Assembly (NCBI GenBank): GCA_963816755.1
Contig: CAWFLN010000008.1
Location: 325,855 to 389,854, forward strand
DNA length: 64,000 nucleotides
From: an uncultured Solirubrobacterales bacterium
GTDB taxonomy: Bacteria > Actinomycetota > Thermoleophilia > Solirubrobacterales > 70-9
Direction of reading: 5' to 3'
Part shown: piece after piece, positions 503-48,494 of the stretch
Numbering within the stretch: position 1 is the first letter of the stretch
Layout of the letters: every line of letters begins with the position of its first letter
Program-made: the position numbers and the translations under genes
The notes under the pieces: generated by a model
The model's input: the letters and a program-made list of their open reading frames with translations, nothing else
The model's database searches: none
Told to the model about the DNA's origin: nothing

Positions 503-1108
503 CGAAACATGTACTTACCCTCGCCACCCGCAACCGGCACAAGTTGAAGGAGGTGGCCGAACTGCTGCCGTCGGTCGATCTACTGTCCCTGCCGCCCGAG
601 GTGGAGCTGCCCGCCGAGGACGGCGACAGCTTCGAGGCCAATGCGCTGATCAAGGCGCGGGCGGCCCGCCGGGCCACCGGGGGGCGTCGTGATCGCCGAC
701 GACTCCGGCATCGCCGCCGAGGATCTCGGCGGCGCTCCCGGCATCTACTCGGCCCGTTACGCCGGCGTCGGCGCAAGCGACGAGGTCAACCTCGACAAGC
801 TGCTGCGCGAGGTCGGCGCGGCTGGCGGCGAGCGCCGCGCCGCCTACGTCTGCGCGATCGCCCTGATCGACGAGCACGGGTCCGAGCAGGTCTTCGAAGC
901 GCGCTGCGAGGGTCGCCTGCTCGACGAGCGCCGCGGCCAGGGCGGCTTCGGCTACGACCCCGCCTTCGTCCCCGACGACACCGGCCCGGACGACGAGCGC
1001 ACCTACGCCGAGCTGAGCGCGGCGGAGAAGAACGCGATCAGCCACCGGGGCCGGGCGATGCGGCTGCTCGCCGCCCACCTCGGCCTGGCGAGCGCCGGGG
1101 CGCCGTGA
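499..1108 (+). CDS. rdgB: dITP/XTP pyrophosphatase RdgB/HAM1 (one frameshift in this assembly)
   Basis: GTG 499 overlaps the rph stop (GTGA). The N-terminal part VTKHVLTLATRNRHKLKEV...FEANALIKA lies in the frame of ORF 307..2145. The C-terminal part IADDSGI...GGFGYDP...KNAISHRG is ORF 689..1108. The frames join at the G6 run 679-684, which has one extra G. Confidence 0.85.
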
Positions 1109-2017
1109 TCCGCACCAAAAGCCGCGCGGCGGCGCTCTCGATCGCCTCCAACGCGCTGCTGATCGGACTCAAGCTCGCCGCCGGGGCGATCACCGGCTCG
1201 ATCGCGATCATCACCGAGGCGGTCCACTCGCTGATCGACCTGGTCGCCTCGGTGGTCGCCTTCGTCTCGGTCCGCAAAGCCGACGAGCCCGCCGACGCCG
1301 AGCACCCCTACGGGCACGAGAAGGTCGAGAGCCTGGCGGCGACGATCGAGGGGATGCTGATCCTGGTCGGCGCCGCGATCATCGTCTACGAGGCGACGCA
1401 CCGGCTGGTGGTCGGCGTCGACCGTCGAAGCCCTCGGTGTCGGCATCGCCGTGATGGGGATCTCGACGATCGCCAACCTCGGCGTTTCGACGGTCCTCTC
1501 CCGTCAGGCGAAGGCACTCGAATCGCCGGCCCTGGAGGGGGACGCGGCGCACCTGCGGACCGATGCCTTCACCTCGGCGGGGGTGCTGGTCGGGTTGCTG
1601 CTGGTCAAGGTCACCGGCAACTCCGCCTTCGACTCGATCACCGCCCTGGCGGTCGCGGTGGCGATCGTCGTCGCCGGGATCAGGATCATCAGGCGCTCCT
1701 CCGGGGTGCTGATCGACGAAGCACTGCCGGACGCGGAGATGGAGCGGATCGAGCTGGCGATCGCGACCGCCCGCACGCCCGAGGTCGCCGGCTACCACAA
1801 GCTGCGCGGCCGCCGCGCCGGCAGCCGCCGCCACATCGACCTCCACGTGCAGTACCGCTCCGGCACCAGCCTCGAGCTGGCGCACGAGCTGGCGCACCGG
1901 ATGCGCGACTCGATCGAGGCCGAGGTTCCCAACTGCGAGGTGCTGATCCACGTCGAGCCGGAGACCTCCTACCGCGAGCCCGACGACAGCCGTTCCGGGC
2001 CTTTTCGCTCCGGTTAG
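1105..2017 (+). CDS. Cation diffusion facilitator (CDF) family metal efflux transporter (one frameshift)
   Basis: GTG 1105 overlaps the rdgB stop. SNALLIGLKLAAGAITGSIAIITEAVHSLIDL...EHPYGHEKVE lies in the frame of ORF 307..2145. It continues in ORF 1451..2017 (HLRTDAFTS..., C-terminal cytoplasmic domain ...HKLRGRRAGSRRHIDLHV). The frame change is near 1420-1450. Confidence 0.8.
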
Positions 2018-2163
2018 GGCGGGGGCAAGAGGTTCACGGCGGCGGCCAGGCCGACTGCGATCAGGGTGATCGTGTAACCGGTGTAGCCGCTGAGGGCGAA
2101 GAGGACCGCGGCGATCGCACAGATCGCGACGACGATGGTCCATGAGGCTCGGGCGAGGGACAC
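2014..2163 (-). CDS. Candidate small hydrophobic protein (49 aa), unannotated
   Basis: Not in the ORF track (<60 aa). The reverse strand from GTG 2163 to TAA 2014 reads MSLARASWTIVVAICAIAAVLFALSGYTGYTITLIAVGLAAAVNLLPPP, with two hydrophobic stretches. No homology recognised. It may be a chance ORF. Confidence 0.2.
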   Translation of the reverse strand: MSLARASWTIVVAICAIAAVLFALSGYTGYTITLIAVGLAAAVNLLPPP

Positions 2164-2182
2164 GGTCGGTATTTTCACTCAC

Positions 2183-2608
2183 ATGGCCGACGCTGCCGCA
2201 ACCGAGGTCGCTCCGGGCGACGCCGCGGCGGCGGCGCTGGCTTTCCTGGCCGAGATGTCACCCGACCTGCGCGGGGCGGCGATCTTCGACGGACGCGGCG
2301 CCGTACTGGCCGCCGCCGGCGAGCCCGACCGCTGGAGCGAGGGTGCGGCGGCGCTTTTCGAGATCGCCGGCCGGGCCGGCGGGGAGCCGGTGGAGCAGGT
2401 CCACATCGCCACCGAGCAGGGCGAGATCTTCGCCCTGCGCCACGCCGGCTTGGCGGCGGTCGCGGTGACCGAGCGCTTCGCCCTGGCCTCGCTGATGTTC
2501 TTCGACATGCGGGCGACCCTGCGCGACCTCGCCGATGGCGGCCGGCGTGTCGAAAACCCACCTATCACGGGGGAGATCGGCCCATCGACCCTGGAGGGCG
2601 GGAGCTGA
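2183..2608 (+). CDS. Roadblock/LC7 (MglB-like) domain protein, putative
   Basis: ORF 2135..2608, with ATG 2183 chosen as start. The pattern ...FLAEMSPDLRGAAIFDGRGAVLAAAG...AAALFEIA...VHIATEQGEIFALRHAGLAAVAVTE...LMFFDMRATL resembles the Roadblock/LC7 fold. The stop overlaps the next start (TGATG). Confidence 0.5.
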   Translation: MADAAATEVAPGDAAAAALAFLAEMSPDLRGAAIFDGRGAVLAAAGEPDRWSEGAAALFEIAGRAGGEPVEQVHIATEQGEIFALRHAGLAAVAVTERFALASLMFFDMRATLRDLADGGRRVENPPITGEIGPSTLEGGS

Positions 2609-2832
2609 TGTCTCCGAAGCCGCACCGTGTTCTGCTCGACAGGGTCTCGGGCTACGCCGACGAGGCCGCCGCCTACATGCGCCGCCGCCGCGTCTCCCGC
2701 CAGCCCTTCGCCCGCCTCTATTACTCCAACGGGCGCAGCTCCGACCACGCCGGCGACTCGACCGCGGGGGCGGAGCTGTTCGCCGTCGCCGGCCGCTTGA
2801 TCGAGGTCGCCGGAAAGCGGCCGAAGGCATGA
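2608..2832 (+). CDS. Hypothetical small protein (74 aa)
   Basis: ORF 2608..2832 is translationally coupled on both sides: TGATG at 2605-2610 and ATGA at 2829-2832. No family recognised. Confidence 0.4.
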   Translation: MSPKPHRVLLDRVSGYADEAAAYMRRRRVSRQPFARLYYSNGRSSDHAGDSTAGAELFAVAGRLIEVAGKRPKA

Positions 2833-4214
2833 CCGAGCTGATCGATCCCGCGGTCGCCGAGCGCGTTCTCACCCGGGCGCTGGCCAACGGCGGTCGCTTC
2901 GCCGAGGTCTTCGCCGAACGCCGCCACGGCCTCTCGATGTCGATCGACGAGTCGCGGATCGAGGCCGTCCAGTCGGGGGCAGAGGAGGGGGCCGGCGTGC
3001 GGGTCGTCGACGGCGCCACCACCTACTTCGCCCATGTCGACGGCCTCGACCCCGCCGACCTCGAGCGCGCTGCCGAGCAGGCCGCATCGGCGCTGCGGGG
3101 CGAGCGCCGCGAGCCGCACCCACTGCGGGCGGTGGCGAGCGTGCCGCTGCCGATCGAGCGCCGGCCCGAAGGGGTGGCGGCGGAGCGCAAGGCTGCCCTG
3201 CTGCGCGATCTGGACGAGCGGGCCCGCGGCCAGGGCGGTGAGATCGCCCAGTTCACCTCCTCCTATGCCGAGGCGCGGCGCGAGGTTGCGATCGCCAACT
3301 CCGATGGCCTGCTGAGCGGCGACGACCGCACCCGAGTGCGGATCGGCGCCCAGGCGGTCGCCCGCCGCGAGGGCACGGTCGAGACCGGCGCCGAGACCCT
3401 CGGCGCCCACCGCGGCTTCGAGCTGCTCGAAGGCGACCCCGGCCGGATCGCCGAGCAGGCGGCGCGCAAGGCACTGACCCTGCTCGACGCGGGCCCGGCT
3501 CCGTCGGGCTCGATGCCGGTGGTGGTCGGCGGTGGCTTCGGTGGCGTCCTCTTCCACGAGATGACCGGGCACGGCCTCGAGGCCGACCACATCCACAAGG
3601 GGGCCAGCGTCTACGCCGGCAAGCTCGGCGAGCAGGTTGCCCAGCCGCTGCTCAGCGCCTACGACGACGGTCGCCTGCCGGGCGAGTGGGGGTCGGACTC
3701 GATCGACGACGAGGGAGCGCCGACGCAGAAGACCAAGGTGATCGCGGAGGGCTGCCTCACCTCCTTCCTCTACGACCGCCTCACCGCCGAGCGCGATGGC
3801 GTCCCCTCGACCGGCAATGGCCGTCGCGAGAGTTTCCGCCACCTGCCGATCCCGCGCATGACCAACACCTACATCGCCCCCGGCGACGCCACTTCGGAGG
3901 AGATGATCGCCGAGGTCGAGAAGGGCTTCTACGCGGTTTCCTTCGCTGGCGGTCAGGTCGATCCGGCGACCGGCGACTTCGTCTTCGGCGTCTCCGAGGG
4001 CTACCTGATCGAGGGCGGCAGGGTGACCAGGCCCTGCCGCGGCGCGACTTTGATCGGCAACTGCCTGGAGGCGCTGAGCGCGATCGACGCGGTCGGCGAC
4101 GACTTCTTGATGAAGACCGGGATCTGCGGCAAGGGCGGCCAGAAAGTCCCCGTCGGCACCGGCCAGGGGCACGTCCGGGTGCAGGCGATGACCGTCGGGG
4201 GGACCGAGCTTTGA
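2829..4214 (+). CDS. tldD: Metalloprotease TldD
   Basis: ATG 2829 lies inside ORF 2535..4214. The sequence MTELIDPAVAERVLTRAL...FAEVFAERRH...GAGVRVV...HEMTGHGLEAD...TGNGRRESFRHLPIPRMTNTY...GKGGQ is typical of the TldD/PmbA family with the HExxxH-like motif. Confidence 0.9.
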   Translation: MTELIDPAVAERVLTRALANGGRFAEVFAERRHGLSMSIDESRIEAVQSGAEEGAGVRVVDGATTYFAHVDGLDPADLERAAEQAASALRGERREPHPLRAVASVPLPIERRPEGVAAERKAALLRDLDERARGQGGEIAQFTSSYAEARREVAIANSDGLLSGDDRTRVRIGAQAVARREGTVETGAETLGAHRGFELLEGDPGRIAEQAARKALTLLDAGPAPSGSMPVVVGGGFGGVLFHEMTGHGLEADHIHKGASVYAGKLGEQVAQPLLSAYDDGRLPGEWGSDSIDDEGAPTQKTKVIAEGCLTSFLYDRLTAERDGVPSTGNGRRESFRHLPIPRMTNTYIAPGDATSEEMIAEVEKGFYAVSFAGGQVDPATGDFVFGVSEGYLIEGGRVTRPCRGATLIGNCLEALSAIDAVGDDFLMKTGICGKGGQKVPVGTGQGHVRVQAMTVGGTEL

Positions 4215-5563
4215 GTGAGCTGAGCGCGACCGCGGGCCGAGCGGTCGAGGCGGCGCTGGAGGCCGGTGCCGCTGACGCGGAGGCCTACGCCTCACGCGAC
4301 CGCGGTCGCGAGGTGAGGGTCCACGGCGGCGAGGTGGAGAGCCTGACGGCAGCCACCCAGAGTGGTATCGGCGTCCGTGCCTGGATCGGTGGCCGGGTCG
4401 GCTACGCATTCGGAACCGACCTCTCCGAGCGGGGCTTGGCGGCGATCGCCACCCGCGCGGCCGAGGCGGCGCGGGTGGCCGACGAGGACGAGTTCGCCGC
4501 GCCGCCGCAGCCGGCGGAGATTGAGGCGCTGCCGGGCCTGAGCGACCCCTCGGTTGCCGCCTGGTCGCCGGCCCGGGCGGCCGAGCTGGCGCTGACCGTG
4601 GAGCGGACCGCGCTGGTAGCCGACGCCCGGATCGCCGGCGTCGAGCAGGCCGTCTACGCCGACTCGGCCGAGCGCGTGGCAATCGCCTCTTCGACCGGGG
4701 TGGCCGGGGAGTATGAGTCCTCCAGCTGCTTCGCCTACCTGCAGGCTCTGGCCGAGGGCGATTCGGGCCGGGAGACCGGTCTGGGCTTCGGCCTGGCACG
4801 CGGCCCCGACGGCCTCGACCCGGAGGCGATCGGAGCCGAGGGGGCCGCTCGGGCCACCGCGATGATCGGCGCCTCCAAGCCCGCCTCGCGCTCCTGCCCA
4901 GTCCTGCTCGACCCCACCGTCGCCGCCAGCTTCGCCGGCTTGATCGCCGGCGCCCTCAGCGCCGCGGCCGTGCAGCGCGGGCGCTCCCCGTTTGCCGGCC
5001 GCCTCGGCGAGGAGCTGGCAAGCGAGGCGCTGGCGCTGCACGACGACGGTCGCGATCCCGGTGGCCCGGCCTCGGCACCCTTCGACGGCGAGGGCGTGCC
5101 GCGCCGGCGCCTGCCGCTGATCGAGGGCGGCCAGCTGCGCTCTTACCTCTACAACACCTACACGGCCAACCGCGAGGGCGTTGGCTCGACCGGCAGCGCC
5201 GCCCGCCACGGCTACCGCTCGCAGCCGTCGGTCTCGGCGTCGAACCTGGTCCTCGCTCCGGGCTCGCTCTCCTTCGCGGAGCTCCTCGGGGAGGTGGGGG
5301 ACGGTGTCTTCGTCACCGATGTCGCCGGGCTGCACTCGGGCGTAAACCCGGTCACCGGCGTCTTCTCGGTCGGCGCTTCGGGCCGGGCGATCCGGGGTGG
5401 CGAGCTGGCCGAGCCGCTGCGGGAGTTCACGATCGCCGGCGATCTCGTCGCGATGCTGGGTGCGGTTCGGGCGGTCGGAGCGGAGGCTCGCTGGGTCCCG
5501 TTCGGGGGCTCCGTCAGGACCCCGCCGCTGCTCGTCGGCGCGATGTCTGTCAGCGGTTCGTGA
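4211..5563 (+). CDS. pmbA: TldE/PmbA family metalloprotease partner
   Basis: TTG 4211 overlaps the tldD stop, in the frame of ORF 3686..5563. The sequence ...DAEAYASRDRGREVRVHGGEVESL...GIGVRAWIGGRVGYAF...FDGEGVPRRRLPLIEGG...GNASR-like C-terminus ...VTGVFSVGASG is PmbA-like. Confidence 0.85.
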   Translation: MSELSATAGRAVEAALEAGAADAEAYASRDRGREVRVHGGEVESLTAATQSGIGVRAWIGGRVGYAFGTDLSERGLAAIATRAAEAARVADEDEFAAPPQPAEIEALPGLSDPSVAAWSPARAAELALTVERTALVADARIAGVEQAVYADSAERVAIASSTGVAGEYESSSCFAYLQALAEGDSGRETGLGFGLARGPDGLDPEAIGAEGAARATAMIGASKPASRSCPVLLDPTVAASFAGLIAGALSAAAVQRGRSPFAGRLGEELASEALALHDDGRDPGGPASAPFDGEGVPRRRLPLIEGGQLRSYLYNTYTANREGVGSTGSAARHGYRSQPSVSASNLVLAPGSLSFAELLGEVGDGVFVTDVAGLHSGVNPVTGVFSVGASGRAIRGGELAEPLREFTIAGDLVAMLGAVRAVGAEARWVPFGGSVRTPPLLVGAMSVSGS

Positions 5564-5626
5564 CGGTTACGCCGTGCCCGCTGTTAGATTGGCGCCCGTC
5601 TTCAACCCCCGAGGAGGATTTCCGAC

Positions 5627-5908
5627 GTGACCAAGGCTGAGTTTCTGGATCAATTGGCCGGCGACGACCGGCTTGGCAGCAAGAAAGCTGCCGGCGACGC
5701 CGTCGACGCTGTGCTCGACGCGATCACCGACACGCTGAGCGGCGGTGGCGAAGTCAGCTTCACCGGCTTCGGCAAATTCCACGTCGCCGAGCGTGGGCCC
5801 CGCCAGGGCGTCAACCCGCGCACTGGCGAGCGGATCACGATTCCGGGCGGCAAGGTACCGCGCTTCTCCGCCGGTTCGGCGCTGAAGACCAAGGTCAAGG
5901 GCGGCTGA
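5627..5908 (+). CDS. hup: Nucleoid-associated DNA-binding protein HU
   Basis: ORF 5627..5908 (GTG start, GAGGAGGA RBS upstream) reads MTKAEFLDQLA...GFGKFHVAERGPRQGVNPRTGERITIPGGKVPRFSAGSALK. Confidence 0.95.
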   Translation: MTKAEFLDQLAGDDRLGSKKAAGDAVDAVLDAITDTLSGGGEVSFTGFGKFHVAERGPRQGVNPRTGERITIPGGKVPRFSAGSALKTKVKGG

Positions 5909-5912
5909 TTTC

Positions 5913-6797
5913 CTGACCCAGTTCGCCGATCGGCTCGCGGCGCTTGTAGACGAGCGCCGCAGCCAGATCTGCCTAGGCCTCGACCCCGACCCGGCCAAGC
6001 TGGCCGGGGAGGGGGAGCCGGCCGCCTCGCAAGCCCCGGCCGCCGAGCTGGCCGCCGCCGCGGTGGTGACGCACTGCCGCACCCTGATCGATCGCGCCGG
6101 TCCCGCCTGCGTCGCGGTCAAGCCCCAAGTCGCCTGCTTCGAGCGCCTCGGCGCTCCCGGCTGGGTGGCTCTGGCCGAGGTCTGCCACGCCGCTCATGAA
6201 GCAGGCCTGCTGACGATCGCCGATGGCAAGCGCGGCGACGTGCCGGTCAGCGCCGCCGCCTACGCGCAAGCGCTGGTCGGCGAGACGCCGACCCCGTGGG
6301 GGATCGTGCCGGGACTCGGCGCCGACGCCTTCACCGCCAACCCACTGCTGGGGCTCGACGCGCTGGAGCCGCTGGTCGCGGCGGCGGCAAGCGCCGGTGC
6401 CGGTGTCTTCGTCCTCGTTCGCACCAGCAACCCGGGCGCCGCCGACGTCCAGGACCTGCCGGCCCCCTCCCAGCCCCTGCATGAGCGCCTTGCCGAGCTT
6501 GTCGACGGCCTCTCTGGGCGCCTGCTCGGAGAGAGCGGCCTGAGCGGCATGGGAGCGGTGGTCGGAGCCACCGAGCCCGAGCACATCGCCCGCCTGCGGG
6601 AGCTGATGCCGCGCTCGATCTTCCTCATCCCCGGCGTCGGCGCCCAGGGTGGCAGGCCGGAGATGCTCGGCCCCGCCTTCGCCGCCGGGCGGGGGTCCGC
6701 CTTGGTCGCGGTCTCGCGCGGGATCGCCGCCGACCCCGATCCGGCCGCGGCCGCGGAGCGGCTGCGAGCCGCCGTCTGGGACGTCTCCACCGCCTGA
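5913..6797 (+). CDS. pyrF: Orotidine-5'-phosphate decarboxylase, type 2
   Basis: ORF 6063..6797 reads ...VKPQVACFERLG...TIADGKRGDV...VLVRTSNPG...IPGVGAQGG. The conserved N-terminal segment LTQFADRLAALVDERRSQICLGLDPDP lies upstream in the same frame. That stretch has no ATG, GTG or TTG, so the start is uncertain (CTG 5913 taken). Confidence 0.8.
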   Translation: MTQFADRLAALVDERRSQICLGLDPDPAKLAGEGEPAASQAPAAELAAAAVVTHCRTLIDRAGPACVAVKPQVACFERLGAPGWVALAEVCHAAHEAGLLTIADGKRGDVPVSAAAYAQALVGETPTPWGIVPGLGADAFTANPLLGLDALEPLVAAAASAGAGVFVLVRTSNPGAADVQDLPAPSQPLHERLAELVDGLSGRLLGESGLSGMGAVVGATEPEHIARLRELMPRSIFLIPGVGAQGGRPEMLGPAFAAGRGSALVAVSRGIAADPDPAAAAERLRAAVWDVSTA

Positions 6798-6852
6798 AGA
6801 CGCCCGCGGCCGGTTATACGATCATCCGCTCTCGAACCGATTTCACCAGTCA

Positions 6853-7170
6853 ATGGAAAAACGTACCAGCGCCCTCGCCCGCCTCTTCGCAGCAATCGCC
6901 CTGGTCGGGGCGGTGATCGTCGTCGTGGTCGTCATCTCGAGCTCGGTCGGCGGCGACTCCGGCTCGTCGGGCAAGGGACACGGATCCGGCCACGCGACGA
7001 AGAAGCACGGTGCGCCTCAGACCAAGGCGGCCAGCTACACCGTCAAGACCGGGGACACGCTGACCTCGATCGCCCACGAAACGGGCGTCCCGGTCGCCAC
7101 GCTCCTCAAGCTGAACCCCGAAGTCGACCCGCAGATCCTGATCGCCGGAGAGAAGCTGAAGCTGCGATGA
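6853..7170 (+). CDS. Membrane-anchored LysM domain protein
   Basis: ATG 6853 lies inside ORF 6649..7170. There is an N-terminal TM helix (LFAAIALVGAVIVVVVVI). The C-terminal LysM reads YTVKTGDTLTSIAHETGVPVATLLKLNPEVDPQILIAGEKLKL. Confidence 0.8.
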   Translation: MEKRTSALARLFAAIALVGAVIVVVVVISSSVGGDSGSSGKGHGSGHATKKHGAPQTKAASYTVKTGDTLTSIAHETGVPVATLLKLNPEVDPQILIAGEKLKLR

Positions 7171-10593: not shown

Positions 10594-12172
10594 GCAGGTC
10601 GCCGGCGTCCGCGAGCTCTCGGCGGACGAGGTGCCTGCCGTCGAGGAGGTGCTGGTCCTCGACTTCGGCGGCCAGTACTCGCAGCTGATCGCCCGGCGGA
10701 TCCGCGAATGCGGGGTCTTCGCCGAGCTGCTGCCGTCGACGACCTCGGTCGAGAAGATCCGCGAGCGAGCCCCAAAAGCGCTTGTCCTTTCCGGTGGCCC
10801 CGCCTCGGTCTCCGAGCCGGGGGCGCCGCCGTTCCCGACCCAGCTGCTCGATCTCGAGATCCCGATGCTGGGGATCTGTTACGGGATGCAGGCGATGGTG
10901 CTGGCTCTCGGCGGTCGGGTCGAGTCGGCCGAGGCGGGCGAGTTCGGCCGCACCGACCTGGTCCTCCGCGAAGGCGGCGGCCGCCTGCTGGGCGGCCTGC
11001 CGGAGCAGCAGAGCTGCTGGATGAGCCATCGCGACGCCGTCTTCGAGGCGCCGCAGGGCTTCGCCGCGCTCGCCTCCAGCCCCAGCTCGCCGGTCGCCGC
11101 CTGTGAGTTTCCCGACCGCGGCCTCTACGGCATCCAGTTCCACCCCGAGGTCGTCCACACGCCCTACGGGACCGAGATCCTGACCCGCTTCCTGCGCGAC
11201 GTCGCCGCTTGCGAGCAGCAGTGGTCGCCGCAGTCGGTGATCGCCGAGCAGGTGGCGAAGATCCGCGACCAGGTCGGCGAGGGACGGGTCATCTGCGGCC
11301 TCTCCGGCGGCGTCGATTCCTCGGTCGCGGCGCTGCTCGTCCACAAGGCGGTGGGAGAGAGGCTGACCTGCGTCTTCGTCGACCATGGCCTGATGCGGCT
11401 GAACGAGGCCGAGCAGGTGGTCGAGGCCTTTCGCCAGTTCGGCATCCCGCTGATCCACGTCGATGCCGAAGCGCGCTTCCTCGCCAAGCTGGCTGGCGTC
11501 GAGGACCCGGAGCGCAAGCGCAAGATCATCGGCGAGGAGTTCATCCGCGTCTTCGAGGAGGAGGCGGAGAAGCTCGAGGACGTCGGCTTCCTGGTCCAGG
11601 GCACGCTCTACTCGGACGTGATCGAGTCCGGCGGCTCAGACCACGCGGCGACGATCAAGTCCCACCACAACGTCGGTGGCCTGCCGGAGGAGTTCGACTT
11701 CGACCTGGTCGAGCCGCTGCGGATGCTGTTCAAGGACGAGGTCCGCGCCGTCGGCGCCGAGCTCGGTATGCCGGAGCGGATGGTCTGGCGCCAGCCCTTC
11801 CCGGGTCCCGGCCTGGGGATCCGGATCGTCGGCGGCGAGGTCAATCGCGAGCGCCTCGACATCCTCCGCGCCGCCGACGCGATCCTCCAGGAGGAGATCC
11901 GCGCGGCGGAGCTGTACCGCCAGCTCTGGCAGTCCTTCTGCGTGCTGCCGGTCGTCCGCTCGGTCGGCGTCCAGGGCGACGGTCGCACCTACGCCTACCC
12001 GATCGTGATCCGCGCCGTCACCTCCGACGACGCGATGACCGCCGACTGGGCGCGGCTGCCGTACGACCTCCTGGAGCGGGTCTCCAACCGGATCATCAAC
12101 GAGATTCGCGACGTCAACCGGGTCGCCCTCGACATCTCCTCGAAGCCGCCGGCGACTATCGAGTGGGAGTAA
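10586..12172 (+). CDS. guaA: GMP synthase (glutamine-hydrolysing)
   Basis: Intact ORF 10586..12172 reads [18 protein letters not shown]...ICYGMQ...[10 protein letters not shown]...[10 protein letters not shown]...[10 protein letters not shown]. Confidence 0.95.
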
Positions 12173-12196
12173 GGGGGCGGACGAGGGTTTGCCGAT

Positions 12197-12303
12197 GGAA
12201 GCTCGGGTTCCCCTCGCTCAGAAGCCGTCGCGCAGCTGGGGCGCCCTGTCAGGGTTCGGAGCGCCTGCGCATGAGCTTCTGAGCGAGGGGAACCCGAGCC
12301 TCC
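12197..12303 (+). repeat. Family A hairpin repeat, copy A1 (sense to guaA)
   Basis: A perfect 25-nt inverted repeat (12201-12225, gctcgggttcccctcgctcagaagc, and 12275-12299) closes a 49-nt loop: cgtcgcgcagctggggcgccctgtcagggttcggagcgcctgcgcatga. The loop is conserved in copies A2-A4. Confidence 0.8.
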
Positions 12304-12326
12304 GACGCAAAGCTCTCCTCCTTTTG

Positions 12327-12385
12327 GAGCTTCCGGCTCACGGAAGCTGCCGTCCCTTAAAAGCTTCCGGCTCACGGAAGCTGCC
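12327..12385. repeat. Direct duplication of a small hairpin (agcttccggctcacggaagct) in the spacer between A1 and A2
   Basis: The 24-nt core agcttccggctcacggaagctgcc occurs at 12328-12351 and again at 12362-12385. The base preceding it differs (g at 12327, a at 12361). Each copy is itself an 8-bp stem with a 5-nt loop. Confidence 0.7.
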
Positions 12386-12413
12386 CACCCGGAGCGGGGG
12401 GGGCGGTTCGGGA

Positions 12414-12521
12414 GGAGGGGGTCGGGAGCCTCTGCCCAGAAGCTCACGCGCCAGCACTCCGCACCCCGGCAAGCGCCCCAGCTGCGCGACGGCTTCTGGG
12501 CAGAGGCTCCCGACCCCCTCC
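12414..12521 (-). repeat. Family A hairpin repeat, copy A2 (inverted relative to A1; sense to the minus-strand ArsR gene)
   Basis: Perfect 30-nt arms at 12414-12443 and 12492-12521. The reverse complement of the loop is cgtcgcgcagctggggcgcttgccggggtgcggagtgctggcgcgtga, the same core as A1. Confidence 0.8.
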
Positions 12522-12548
12522 CCGCCAACCTCCCGTCCCAAGCACCGT

Positions 12549-13136
12549 CTACGCAGTCATCGACCCGGCCGTCTCGAAGCTGGCCAGCCCGATCACCGTG
12601 GAGATCGAATCCTCTGCGCCGGAGCTGGCGAGGCGATCCTGACTTCGCCGGTGTGCGGCCAGGACGAGGTTGGTCGCCTCTTCCATGATTGCCGCCACCT
12701 CCCCCCAGCCGGTCTGGTCGAGGAGCAGGGGCATCCAGCGGAAGGTGGTGTTCTCGCGGCCGTCGAGCGTGCCCGCTTCCAGCGCTGCGATGGCCTTGTC
12801 GAGAAAGGTCTGCAGGGTGGCGGCGGAAACCCCGCCGAGAACCGAACGGGGCACCTTGCGCCAGGCGCGGTCGCCGACGAAGGAGCCCGGGGACGCCTTG
12901 TAGAAGTGCTCGGTGGCGCCGCGTTTCTGTGCGGTGTCGACCAGATCCAGGCAGCCGCACTTATCGAGCGCCCTGGTGTGGTAGGCGACGTGGCTGAGCC
13001 CGGCATCCAGTCGCTCCGAGAGCCAGATCGGGCTGGCGACCCGTTCGGTCAGGATTTCGAGGATCTGCACGCGCAACGGGTGGGCGAGGGCTCTAACCAG
13101 GCGCTGGTCGATCGATTCTGGTCTTTCTTGCTTCAT
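12549..13136 (-). CDS. ArsR-type winged-helix transcriptional regulator with a C-terminal extension
   Basis: ORF 12549..13136 reads ALAHPLRVQILEILTERVASPIWLSERLDAGLSHVAYHTRALDKCGCLDLV, followed by about 100 aa of unassigned sequence. Confidence 0.7.
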   Translation of the reverse strand: MKQERPESIDQRLVRALAHPLRVQILEILTERVASPIWLSERLDAGLSHVAYHTRALDKCGCLDLVDTAQKRGATEHFYKASPGSFVGDRAWRKVPRSVLGGVSAATLQTFLDKAIAALEAGTLDGRENTTFRWMPLLLDQTGWGEVAAIMEEATNLVLAAHRRSQDRLASSGAEDSISTVIGLASFETAGSMTA

Positions 13137-18346: not shown

Positions 18347-18404
18347 CTTTCCGGCCAAGCCCGGCCGGGCATATCCGTTGTCGCGCACCGCTAGCCCTCT
18401 CTTT

Positions 18405-18550
18405 CGATCGCCTACGGAGTTAGCTGTCGGGCTCGCGCTGAAAGAGATGCGCTACGGACCGTTTCGTCCGATTCGCCCCTGAGACCTGCAACGGTCTCTT
18501 CGGTTCCTCCGCTCCCGTTCGGACGCCCGGACGGGATTCGGCACTGCTGG
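18405..18550 (-). promoter_or_regulatory. Cyclic-di-AMP riboswitch (ydaO/yuaA class) in the 5' leader of the M23 peptidase gene
   Basis: The minus strand reads GUGCCGAAUC-hairpin-AGCGGAGGAACCGA-hairpin-AGGGGCGAAUCGGAC...GAGCCCGACAGCUAACUCCGUAGGCG. This matches the pseudo-twofold ydaO consensus (two GAAUC blocks, a GGGGA(A)CC block, and the 3' ACAGCUAAC-UCGUA-GCG block). A CCGGCC/GGCCGG hairpin lies just before the ATG. Confidence 0.7.
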
Positions 18551-18622
18551 CGCGGCAGTATAGACAGCGGGATGGCTATGATCCCCCGGCCGCGTGGGGT
18601 TCGACCGCGCGGCTTTTCCACG

Positions 18623-35882: not shown

Positions 35883-35999
35883 GGTCGGGGGTCAGGTACC
35901 CCTCCTCTCTCGCCTACCTGGCTGAGTCGCCACTGGCCGTCCGAGAGGGCTTTCGGGCCAGCGGCGCAAAACGTTCGGAGGGGTACCTGACCCCCGACC
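35883..35999 (+). repeat. Family B hairpin repeat, copy B1 (sense to the upstream plus-strand gene)
   Basis: Perfect 23-nt arms (ggtcgggggtcaggtacccctcc at 35883-35905 and 35977-35999) close a 71-nt loop. That loop recurs inverted in B2. Confidence 0.8.
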
Positions 36000-36133: not shown

Positions 36134-36254
36134 GCGGGAGGGGTCGGTAGGGCCTGCGAACGTTTTGTGCCGCTGGCCGGGGAAGCTTTTCTCGGACGGC
36201 GAGTGGCGATACAGCCAGGCAGGCAAGTGAGGAGGCCCTACCGACCCCTCCCGC
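36134..36254 (-). repeat. Family B hairpin repeat, copy B2 (inverted; sense to the minus-strand zinc-ribbon gene)
   Basis: Perfect 22-nt arms at 36134-36155 (gcgggaggggtcggtagggcct) and 36233-36254. The reverse complement of the loop matches the B1 loop (…gcctggct…tcgccact.gccgtccgaga…ggccagcggc.caaaacgttc). Confidence 0.8.
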
Positions 36255-47221: not shown

Positions 47222-47328
47222 GGGGGAGCCGGGTGCCACTCCCACGAAGGCCGTCGCGCAGCTGGGTCGCGTGTCAGGGTTCGGATGCCTGTCCATGAGC
47301 CTTCGTGGGAGTGGCACCCGGCTCCCCC
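47222..47328 (+). repeat. Family A hairpin repeat, copy A3
   Basis: Perfect 30-nt arms at 47222-47251 (gggggagccgggtgccactcccacgaaggc) and 47299-47328. The loop cgtcgcgcagctgggtcgcgtgtcagggttcggatgcctgtccatga is very similar to the A1 loop. Confidence 0.8.
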
Positions 47329-47427
47329 GGCGAAGCCGACACTCCGATTCCCCGAAAGCTCCCGTCTCACATCAGCTTCCGCCCACAAAGCCGCCGATCT
47401 CACCGAAGCTCGTCAGGGATTCGTGAG

Positions 47428-47530
47428 GTCGGCCGGGTGTCCCTCCCCCGCAGGCTCCCGGACAGACGTCCGAACCCTGGCAAGCGACCCAGCTGCGCGA
47501 CGGCCTGCGGGGGAGGGACACCCGGCCGAC
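47428..47530 (-). repeat. Family A hairpin repeat, copy A4 (inverted; sense to ctaB transcript)
   Basis: Perfect 28-nt arms at 47428-47455 (gtcggccgggtgtccctcccccgcaggc) and 47503-47530. The reverse complement of the loop is cgtcgcgcagctgggtcgcttgccagggttcggacgtctgtccggga. Confidence 0.8.
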
Positions 47531-47570
47531 CCGCGCCAACCCCTCACGAGCCCCCGCCAGATCGCCCCGG

Positions 47571-48494
47571 CTACACGTGGGCGTCGATTGCCATCGCCAG
47601 GAAGAGCAGGGCCAGATAGGCAAGCGAGAAGAGGTAGGTGCGCAGGGCCCAGCTGCGGTCGGCCGTGCGCAGCAGCTTCGTCGAGCAGTAGATGAAGCCG
47701 GCGCCGAGCGCCATCGAGGGCACCAGGTAGGCGACGCCGAGGCCGCCGGCACAGAAGGGCAGCTGGGTGACCGCGTAGAGGAGGACCGTGTAGAGGAGGA
47801 TCTGGCGCCGGGTCTCGTCCTCGCCCCGCACCACCGGGAGCATCGGGATGCCGGCCTTGGCGTACTCGTCCTTCATCAGCAGCGAGAGCGCCCAGAAGTG
47901 GGGCGGCGTCCAGAAGAAGACGATCGCGAAGAGGAAGAAGGCCATGCCGCTGAGCCCGCCCGTCACCGCCGCCCAGGCGACCAGCGGCGGCACCGCGCCG
48001 GCGGCGCCGCCGATGACGATGTTCTGGGGGGTGCTGCGCTTGAGCCAGAGCGTGTAGACGAAGACGTAGCCGAGCAGGCCGGAGAGCGAGAGTGCCGCCG
48101 CCAGGGGGTTGACGGTCAGCGCCAGCAGCGCGAACGAGGCGCAGCCGAGCAGCGTCCCGAAGGCGATCGCGGCGGTGGGGGAGATGCGGCCGGAGGCGAC
48201 GGGGCGATCGGCGGTGCGGGCCATCATCCGGTCGATGTCGCGGTCGATCGCGTGGTTGATCGCGCCGGCGCCGCCGGCGGAGAGGGCGCCGCCGAGGCAG
48301 GTGAGGAAGATCAGGCCGAGCGAGGGGTCGCCGGCGACGTACATCGTCGTCACCGTCGTGAACAGCAGCAGCGACTGCACCTTCGGCTTGGTCAGCGTCA
48401 GGTAGTCGCGGACCGCCGTCATCGCGGCGGAGCGCGGGGCAGGTGCGGCTGCCGTCGGGGTGGGCGCGGTCTGCGCGCCGCCGCCGGCCATCAC
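47571..48494 (-). CDS. ctaB: Protoheme IX farnesyltransferase (heme O synthase)
   Basis: Intact ORF 47571..48494 reads YLTLTKPKV...GAGAINHAIDRDIDRMMARTADRP...NIVIGGAAGAVPPL...FFWTPPHFWALS. Confidence 0.9.
   Translation of the reverse strand: MMAGGGAQTAPTPTAAAPAPRSAAMTAVRDYLTLTKPKVQSLLLFTTVTTMYVAGDPSLGLIFLTCLGGALSAGGAGAINHAIDRDIDRMMARTADRPVASGRISPTAAIAFGTLLGCASFALLALTVNPLAAALSLSGLLGYVFVYTLWLKRSTPQNIVIGGAAGAVPPLVAWAAVTGGLSGMAFFLFAIVFFWTPPHFWALSLLMKDEYAKAGIPMLPVVRGEDETRRQILLYTVLLYAVTQLPFCAGGLGVAYLVPSMALGAGFIYCSTKLLRTADRSWALRTYLFSLAYLALLFLAMAIDAHV

Follow-up and report, generated by a model that had tools for sequence, protein, structure and literature searches.

Behind guaA in an uncultured Solirubrobacterales bacterium, two long hairpins face each other in inverted orientation, and this raises the question of what kind of element they are and how their arms remain complementary. 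The window analyzed here is a stretch of 64,000 nt (G000:C8:325855-389854) from a 2.18-Mb MAG of this organism (G000; 9 contigs, 69% G+C, 68% complete). A first-pass annotation had described four such hairpins in the window (A1 to A4), and the window sequence confirms them as real structures: perfect stems of 25-30 bp close loops of 47-49 nt. All four loops open with CGTCGCGCAGCTGGG, and this exact 15-mer is found at four sites of the window, exclusively these. Folded as RNA, the four copies have predicted energies of -87 to -106 kcal/mol, with z = -7.7 to -9.2 compared with shuffled sequences.

Table 1. Coordinates of the family A hairpins and related features in the window.
Feature	Position	Strand	Description
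A1	12201-12299	+	25-bp perfect stem (arms 12201-12225 and 12275-12299); 98.5 bits
A1 loop	12226-12274	+	49 nt, CGTCGCGCAGCTGGGGCGCC...GCGCATGA
A1-A2 spacer	12328-12382		Small hairpin AGCTTCCGGCTCACGGAAGCT, two direct copies
A2	12414-12521	-	30-bp perfect stem, 48-nt core; 96 bits
A3	47222-47328	+	30-bp perfect stem, 47-nt core; 114 bits; left partner of the second pair
A4	47427-47531	-	29-bp perfect stem, 47-nt core; 105.5 bits

A1 starts 29 nt past the guaA stop codon (12170-12172) and lies in sense to guaA; its outer pairing is weaker and extends out to 12197-12303. A2, in which imperfect pairing continues ~12 bp further outward, is in sense to a minus-strand gene of 195 aa ending at 12549. 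In the second pair, A3 runs antisense to the minus-strand genes on either side of it, and A4, located ~40 nt past the stop codon of the minus-strand gene ctaB (UbiA family; 47571-48494), is in sense to that gene. Pfam confirmed guaA on the plus strand as well as ctaB, whereas the minus-strand neighbor of guaA, annotated as an ArsR-type gene, gave no Pfam match at E≤0.001.

When the window was scanned with Rfam at the gathering thresholds, no family matched the hairpins. The sole match was a c-di-AMP (ydaO-type) riboswitch (18394-18553, minus strand; 81.9 bits vs a gathering score of 38). A permissive scan yielded only matches similar to miRNA precursors (≤45 bits vs thresholds of 47-168), that is, a generic likeness of long hairpins. 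Assignment to any Rfam family was thus rejected, as the first-pass annotation had anticipated.

A covariance model built from 25 copies detects 30 sense copies of this family (family A) in G000, corresponding to ten pairs and ten singles. Their scores are bimodal, and decayed copies are almost absent. The same model finds family A in 22 of 24 genomes belonging to the genus, whereas 16 genomes that represent five other families of Solirubrobacterales gave no copy. Within the genus, three genomes (G001, G021, G015) have at most one copy each, compared with 10-15 copies in the others. A pattern scan of one genome per species (185,579 species) returned 118 stretches; ~75 of the 80 stretches listed belong to Solirubrobacterales/Thermoleophilia soil MAGs, and the others are chance matches in coding DNA. 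Five pattern matches were obtained in viral contigs, none of them a family A member. Every one of the closest guaA loci likewise belongs to a soil MAG of uncultured Solirubrobacterales (Thermoleophilia). As a full-text literature search found no account of such repeats for Thermoleophilia, family A apparently represents undescribed palindromic repeats (~105 bases) of uncultured soil actinobacteria.

The architecture of the family was derived from 123 copies, in which the stem comprises 28-30 bp and the element ~105 nt in all. The stem follows the consensus GGGAGGGnnnGGTgCCCCTC, which is also used by other core families of G000, and the 5' arm can be written as GGGAGGG-nnn-GG-T-nn-CCCCTC-(T/C)CC-nnAGnC. 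Counted from the loop, stem positions 11-15, 19-20 and 24-26 are nearly fixed, and at positions 16-18 and 21-23 all four pair types occur. The hairpin consists of an outer chassis of ~18-20 bp per arm (consensus GGGAGGG-nnn-GGT-nn-CCCCTC) and a family-specific core formed by ~10 bp of inner stem and the loop of ~47 nt. The core of family A is asymmetric (46-51 nt); its loop begins with the almost invariant 5' block CGTCGCGCAGCTG, continues with a variable middle and ends in (T/G)GA. The stems, regarded initially as different sequences, are in fact homologous, as they share one consensus and differ at a few hypervariable paired positions.

RNAalifold revealed no conserved internal secondary structure of the loop (106 cores). 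Two candidate features of the family were discarded, namely the 6-bp GCGCAG/CTGCGC helix in the A1 loop, which is copy-specific, and a T-loop likeness (GGTTCGA), which is not conserved. Outside the stem, the flank logos do not exceed 0.25 bits per position. The motif ACGAAGC in the 3' flank was rejected as a possible target, being weak and, at one site at least, part of pre-existing intergenic DNA. Note also that GGGAGGG of each 5' arm could pair with CC(T)CTCCC of the same arm. The resulting hairpin of 7 bp would have the hypervariable positions in its loop, and the long stem might thus be replaced by an arrangement of three hairpins.

The perfection of the stems is a feature of the lineage of G000, as most other genomes carry conserved mismatches. 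Among 96 copies from other genomes, 53 have A·C at stem position 2 and 55 have C·T at stem positions 7/8. In G000 both mismatches have been resolved to perfect pairs, in either direction and mostly to G:C; one copy retains A·C.

The position of family A relative to genes was assessed with a codon-usage gene caller trained on G000. A co-oriented gene ends ≤80 nt upstream of 58 of the 79 single copies, only a convergent gene end is present for four copies, and 17 copies are ambiguous. In most cases the stem starts 0-30 nt past the stop codon (median, ~15 nt). The polarity of the element tracks the upstream gene, and the proposal that each gene first meets a copy in its own sense is borne out. 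An inverted partner copy is often found 50-140 nt further on; all 22 pairs (10 of them in G000) have the plus copy first and the minus copy second, and the inverted arrangement reported for the window is therefore valid for the family. Nevertheless, the pairs are not confined to convergent genes: half of them are located between tandem genes, and there the second copy, like A3, runs antisense to either gene. Pairing of copies is therefore a matter of DNA structure and not a response to convergent transcription.

Such an arrangement brings to mind a DNA-structural element, i.e., a cruciform or a protein-binding site (for gyrase or a nucleoid protein, as in BIME/REP) that would manage supercoiling at gene ends. 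The inverted dimers, their location at gene 3' ends and between convergent genes, and the strict Watson-Crick complementarity of the arms agree with this explanation. However, a symmetric role leaves the sense bias of the asymmetric core unexplained, loops of 47 nt make cruciform extrusion costly, and no binding protein or motif is known; we consider a role of this kind very improbable.

Nor are the hairpins canonical intrinsic terminators. They lack a U tract, their downstream flanks are C-rich and not T-rich, and the region 12000-12700 contains no terminator-like site, in line with the initial view that they are not simple terminators. Repeated conserved hairpins directly behind stop codons and without a U tract in high-GC actinobacteria are exemplified by the TRIT-type motifs of Mycobacterium and by the "I-shaped" terminators of actinobacteria. 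Compared to these, family A has a much longer stem, a large conserved loop, inverted dimers and a modular composition, and its function in termination is only putative.

The surroundings of family A contain further small repeats. The sequence GGAAGCT/AGCTTCC is ~40-fold enriched within 110 nt downstream of family A (6.7 per kb vs 0.14 per kb in the whole genome). In many cases it forms small hairpins, which are also present in other pair spacers (G000:C8:35239-35276 and 80944-80975). At one comparison of a filled and an empty site, GGAAGCT was pre-existing intergenic DNA.

One family A pair outside the window (G000:C2:348160-356476) is split by ~7.9 kb. The intervening segment codes for proteins with LamG repeats and for a fragment of an IS256-like transposase. 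On both sides it is bordered by a direct duplication of ~150 bp (~98% identical), which starts within the left core, behind CAG of CAGCTG, includes the spacer and stops 2 nt short of the right core. The split pair could be due to an insertion into the pair or to an assembly join in a strain mixture; a staggered-cut insertion site at 348160/356372 was rejected in view of the asymmetry of the two breakpoints.

How the two arms change was studied by their pairing. In positions 1-26 of the 96 copies from other genomes, there are 2331 Watson-Crick pairs, seven G·T pairs and 158 mismatches, 127 of which fall on positions 2, 7 and 8. Without these three positions (~2200 pairs), seven G·T pairs are opposed to 31 other mismatches, and thus wobble is no commoner than chance among the non-pairs. 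Furthermore, 59 syntenic comparisons were made, in which both 600-nt flanks are homologous and in the same orientation (flank identity 77-94%). In the arms, 243 substitutions and 34 indel columns are mirrored, and 75 changes affect one arm only; with positions 2, 7 and 8 left out, 368 mirrored changes are found vs 31 one-arm changes (~12:1). The comparisons share copies, and these counts are not numbers of independent events, although they clearly all point the same way. This ratio is equal at low and at high divergence. The mirrored changes comprise 178 transitions and 155 transversions, the changes in the unpaired loop 182 and 277, respectively. In a formal covariation analysis of 103 distinct copies, 651 double-change cells were counted vs 10 one-side changes of the wobble type, and none of 500 shuffles reached the observed value. 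Together with the 30 copies detected by the covariance model, this supports the initial description of a conserved core closed by compensated stems.

The same covariation had been taken, together with other features, as a sign of an RNA-level or DNA-cruciform function; it is, however, no evidence of selection at the RNA level. Selection for RNA folding via G·U pairs predicts wobble, a transition bias and intermediates at low divergence, and none of these was observed. Copying of one arm onto the other at the DNA level, by contrast, would yield precisely the pattern found. Indeed, with no preference for G·T, near-equal transversions and mirrored indels, the complementarity of the arms looks DNA-templated, brought about by template switching during replication, a one-step compensatory mechanism within quasi-palindromes (PMC8794818); this interpretation is drawn from the substitution pattern. 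As an unselective correction would erase the conserved mismatches at positions 2 and 7/8, selection must act there too.

These data have to be weighed against the possibility that family A is purely an RNA-level element of the 3' UTR (a processing, stability or protein-binding signal), with the stem held by selection on RNA folding and with its spread and its pairing being secondary. This explanation accounts for the sense bias (58 vs 4) and the tight spacing behind stop codons, and it is compatible with the conservation of position across species at 77-94% flank identity, with the core motif conserved in situ and with the very stable predicted fold. However, G·U pairs are not favored (7 vs 31 other mismatches; 10 wobble-type vs 651 double changes), transversion-type swaps are nearly as frequent as transitions, and indels are mirrored. 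In addition, half of the pairs are flanked by tandem genes, so that one copy is antisense to either of them, whole elements are present or absent, one chassis is common to unrelated cores, and no Rfam family matches. We therefore regard a purely RNA-level element as unlikely.

Comparison of syntenic sites shows that the hairpin is present or absent as a whole. Behind guaA, the two genes are separated by just ~15 nt in one relative (L017), a single A copy is accompanied by other hairpins in a second (L172), and A1, two small hairpins and A2 are present in G000; the A copy behind guaA in L172 rules out that the occupation of this site is unique to G000. Conversely, three sites filled in relatives are empty in G000, with the entire hairpin missing, including the outer stem; note that gains of whole hairpins and precise losses are inseparable without a phylogeny. 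No target duplication is visible in the comparisons of L150, L133 and L169 with G000, in which the flanks are 80-90% identical and a duplication of 2-3 bp could be hidden.

The chassis is not restricted to family A. In G000, 34 hairpins with the chassis ...CCCT(C/G)-core-(G/C)AGGG... carry cores of 51-116 nt belonging to at least five families, and none of them is empty. The stems thus act like terminal inverted repeats common to several core families, and the gain or loss of entire hairpins among relatives likewise resembles MITEs and REPs. At G000:C2:56190-56312, three relatives (L127, L102, L096) have an A core and G000 has a TTTTTCGCC-type core within near-identical outer stems; as these outer stems are near the consensus, this single case is no proof of a core swap. 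A search for flipped cores at syntenic sites was dropped, because the screen was confounded by inverted partners.

Pair partners provide further information on the history of the two modules. They resemble each other more than random copies do in the inner stem (0.80 vs 0.69), the mid-loop (0.70 vs 0.56) and the loop end (0.87 vs 0.66), and there is no excess likeness in the outer stem (0.67 vs 0.69). Orthologues, by comparison, retain signal in the outer stem and the mid-loop alike. The cores of partners are thus homogenised and their outer stems are not, i.e., core and chassis have partly separate histories. The 5' core motif has an identity of 0.93 in syntenic copies at every divergence (a value partly inflated, as foreign copies were found via that motif), compared with 0.59-0.64 for the mid-loop. 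The copies are old and divergent (~70% identity); the closest non-partners are ~84% alike, and only some partner cores are near-identical. Apart from these cores, near-identical copies that would indicate recent transposition or bursts are absent.

At least four more hairpin families of G000 have the same outer stem (...GGTGCCCCTC-core-GAGGGGCACC...). Their cores include one of ~72 nt (TTCGCTTAACTTTTTCG...CGAAAAAGTACAAGACGC; ~25 copies in G000), one of ~98-116 nt (TTGTCGCTCCGCGCCC.ATGGGCGCG..., also found in inverted pairs), one of ~79-85 nt (...TTTTTCGCC...GGCGAAAAA...) and one of ~73 nt (CTCTCTCGCC...CAAAACGTTCG), of which the window contains a pair (35883-35999 and 36134-36254). Some cores of these shared-stem families have common sub-blocks, e.g., GGGTCGCCTGCC and GTCGCGCAG.

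The precise presence or absence of hairpins could also be the result of a selfish ssDNA element that is recognized in its folded form and cut at the conserved motif of the stem-loop junction by a HUH-type (RAYT or IS200-IS605-like) or another structure-specific nuclease and brings no gain to the host. Structure-recognizing recombinases use junction motifs and strand-specific mismatches, and family A has both a motif at the stem-loop junction and strand-specific mismatches at positions 2 and 7/8. The three filled/empty comparisons without a visible target-site duplication point in the same direction, as do the use of one chassis by several core families, similar to the shared ends of MITEs, and the inverted dimers known from REP/BIME/REPIN (PMC3733652). 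Against this, a motif search revealed no RAYT-like ORF: a regular-expression search of six-frame ORFs with RAYT motifs gave no convincing match in the 68%-complete genome. An autonomous element was not found either, as G000 (68% complete) contains no inverted repeat of ≥17 bp with chassis sequence at a distance of 0.4-6 kb; both of these searches are weak tests. Moreover, near-identical copies are lacking and viral contigs carry none, the orientation follows the gene rather than the direction of replication, with both orientations at one locus, and the core motif and the pairing are kept in old syntenic copies, which is not expected from selfish decay. A purely selfish element thus appears to be a rather improbable explanation.

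G000 contains several other repeats. Two units of 1.65 kb (G000:C9:92911-94560 and C2:147810-149454) are bounded by the same inverted repeat of 23-26 bp (CTTAGCCTCAATCCACCGATTCACCA); they probably represent an insertion sequence that has no relation to the hairpin families. A large, near-perfect nested inverted duplication (C9:~770-6960; arms perfect up to ~200 bp) makes up the first 7 kb of contig 9 and is probably a fold-back assembly artefact at the contig end. A short hairpin family, consisting of GCCGATGGGCCGATAAGT, a 13-nt loop and the complement, occupies at least 12 sites in G000 (e.g., C7:87240-87310, C8:61138-61182), and CGAACGCAnTTGTCCCCG-GTATG defines another small family, with three members.

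Among the known systems, REP/BIME/REPIN elements are similar in many respects: they are extragenic, GC-rich hairpins with tens of copies per genome at gene 3' ends, occur mostly as inverted dimers, are patchily distributed among relatives and have a CGTC tetranucleotide beside a stem (PMC3733652). Family A shares the extragenic multi-copy occurrence in inverted dimers (30 copies; 22 of 22 pairs in one configuration). However, REPs are sequences of 20-40 bp with stems of 5-13 bp and loops of 2-20 nt (PMC3733652), whereas family A, with a stem of 28-30 bp, a core of 46-51 nt and ~105 nt in total, is not a small palindrome. In REPs the GTAG/CGTC tag stands outside the stem, whereas CGTC forms the first four loop bases of family A; with the tag inside the loop and near information-free flanks, membership in the CGTC-tagged REPs (PMC3733652) was rejected. 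REPs with the CGTC tag, too, have no known transposase of their own (PMC3733652). In comparison with REPINs the pattern is reversed, as the stem of family A is variable and its loop conserved.

Bacterial MITEs (Correia/NEMIS, ERIC/IRU, RUP, bcr1) resemble family A as non-coding elements of ~100-150 bp with terminal inverted repeats forming long hairpins, with several internal families sharing the same ends, with insertion polymorphism and, putatively in family A, with co-transcription with their neighbors. Family A is likewise small (~105 nt) and non-coding, with inverted ends of 28-30 bp. In contrast to MITEs, it has no visible target-site duplication, and a parent IS that shares its ends was not found in G000; its copies are old (~70% identity) with stems still perfect and hypervariable end positions changing in mirror fashion, and they are strictly placed and polar behind stop codons. 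In integron attC sites, conserved R and L boxes lie at the base of the stem and the terminal structure is variable. Family A is organized the other way round (apex and core conserved, stem base variable, flanks without information), and an attC identity was rejected. By the features that define them, family A is therefore neither a REP/REPIN, nor a canonical terminator, nor an attC site, nor a member of any Rfam family.

The closest parallel for the evolution of the arms is provided by hairpins formed by template switching, which show one-step compensation of several bases and perfect stems with no need for G·U intermediates (PMC8794818; PMC5453318). There, the mechanism was deduced from infrequent events affecting rRNA and other genes (PMC8794818; PMC5453318). 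Family A differs in offering hundreds of paralogous and orthologous hairpins, with ~12 mirrored changes per single-arm change, and here, too, the mechanism is inferred.

On balance, family A is probably a REP/MITE-like modular palindromic repeat, one family of a genus-restricted, non-coding superfamily, with DNA-templated co-evolution of its arms and a putative role as a 3'-end hairpin. The whole hairpin is the unit that is present or absent, sitting ~15 nt behind a stop codon with its core in mRNA sense. Complementarity would be maintained by switching of the template within one strand at the replication fork, or by a comparable correction between the arms, so that a change in one arm would be copied onto the other in a single step. 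With such single-step copying, the sequence of the arms could diverge without any loss of pairing. The 3'-end role is suggested by the strict sense orientation and by the conservation of the core in situ over long divergence: the transcribed element would act as a terminator or as a block to exonucleases. Note that a perfect duplex of 28 bp would be a substrate for RNase III and could destabilize the mRNA instead of protecting it. The conserved core may be the site of a putative protein, either a mobilizing nuclease or an RNA/DNA-binding factor.

Family A may also be envisaged as a new kind of mobile hairpin, whose chassis, kept perfect by template switching, serves as a docking frame for exchangeable cores (A, B, C, D and others). 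The whole unit would be placed strand-specifically ~15 nt behind stops, coupled to termination of transcription or translation, by enzymes of a class with no known connection to repeats. This scenario is decidedly unlikely in our estimation.

For the preferred reading, a modular repeat with DNA-templated arms, several implications follow. Stems that stay paired while their sequence drifts are an old problem, which usually has to be approached with few compensatory changes and amid debate over G·U intermediates. With hundreds of hairpins, a ~12:1 ratio of mirrored to one-arm changes, mirrored indels and conserved mismatches, family A makes the template-switch model testable on natural data. It further illustrates that "covariation" in hairpins derived from repeats is not a proof of RNA function. 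In genome annotation, family A should be masked or treated as a likely transcript-end signal. For the organisms themselves, family A constitutes an abundant, lineage-specific class of gene-end elements in poorly known, very common soil bacteria.
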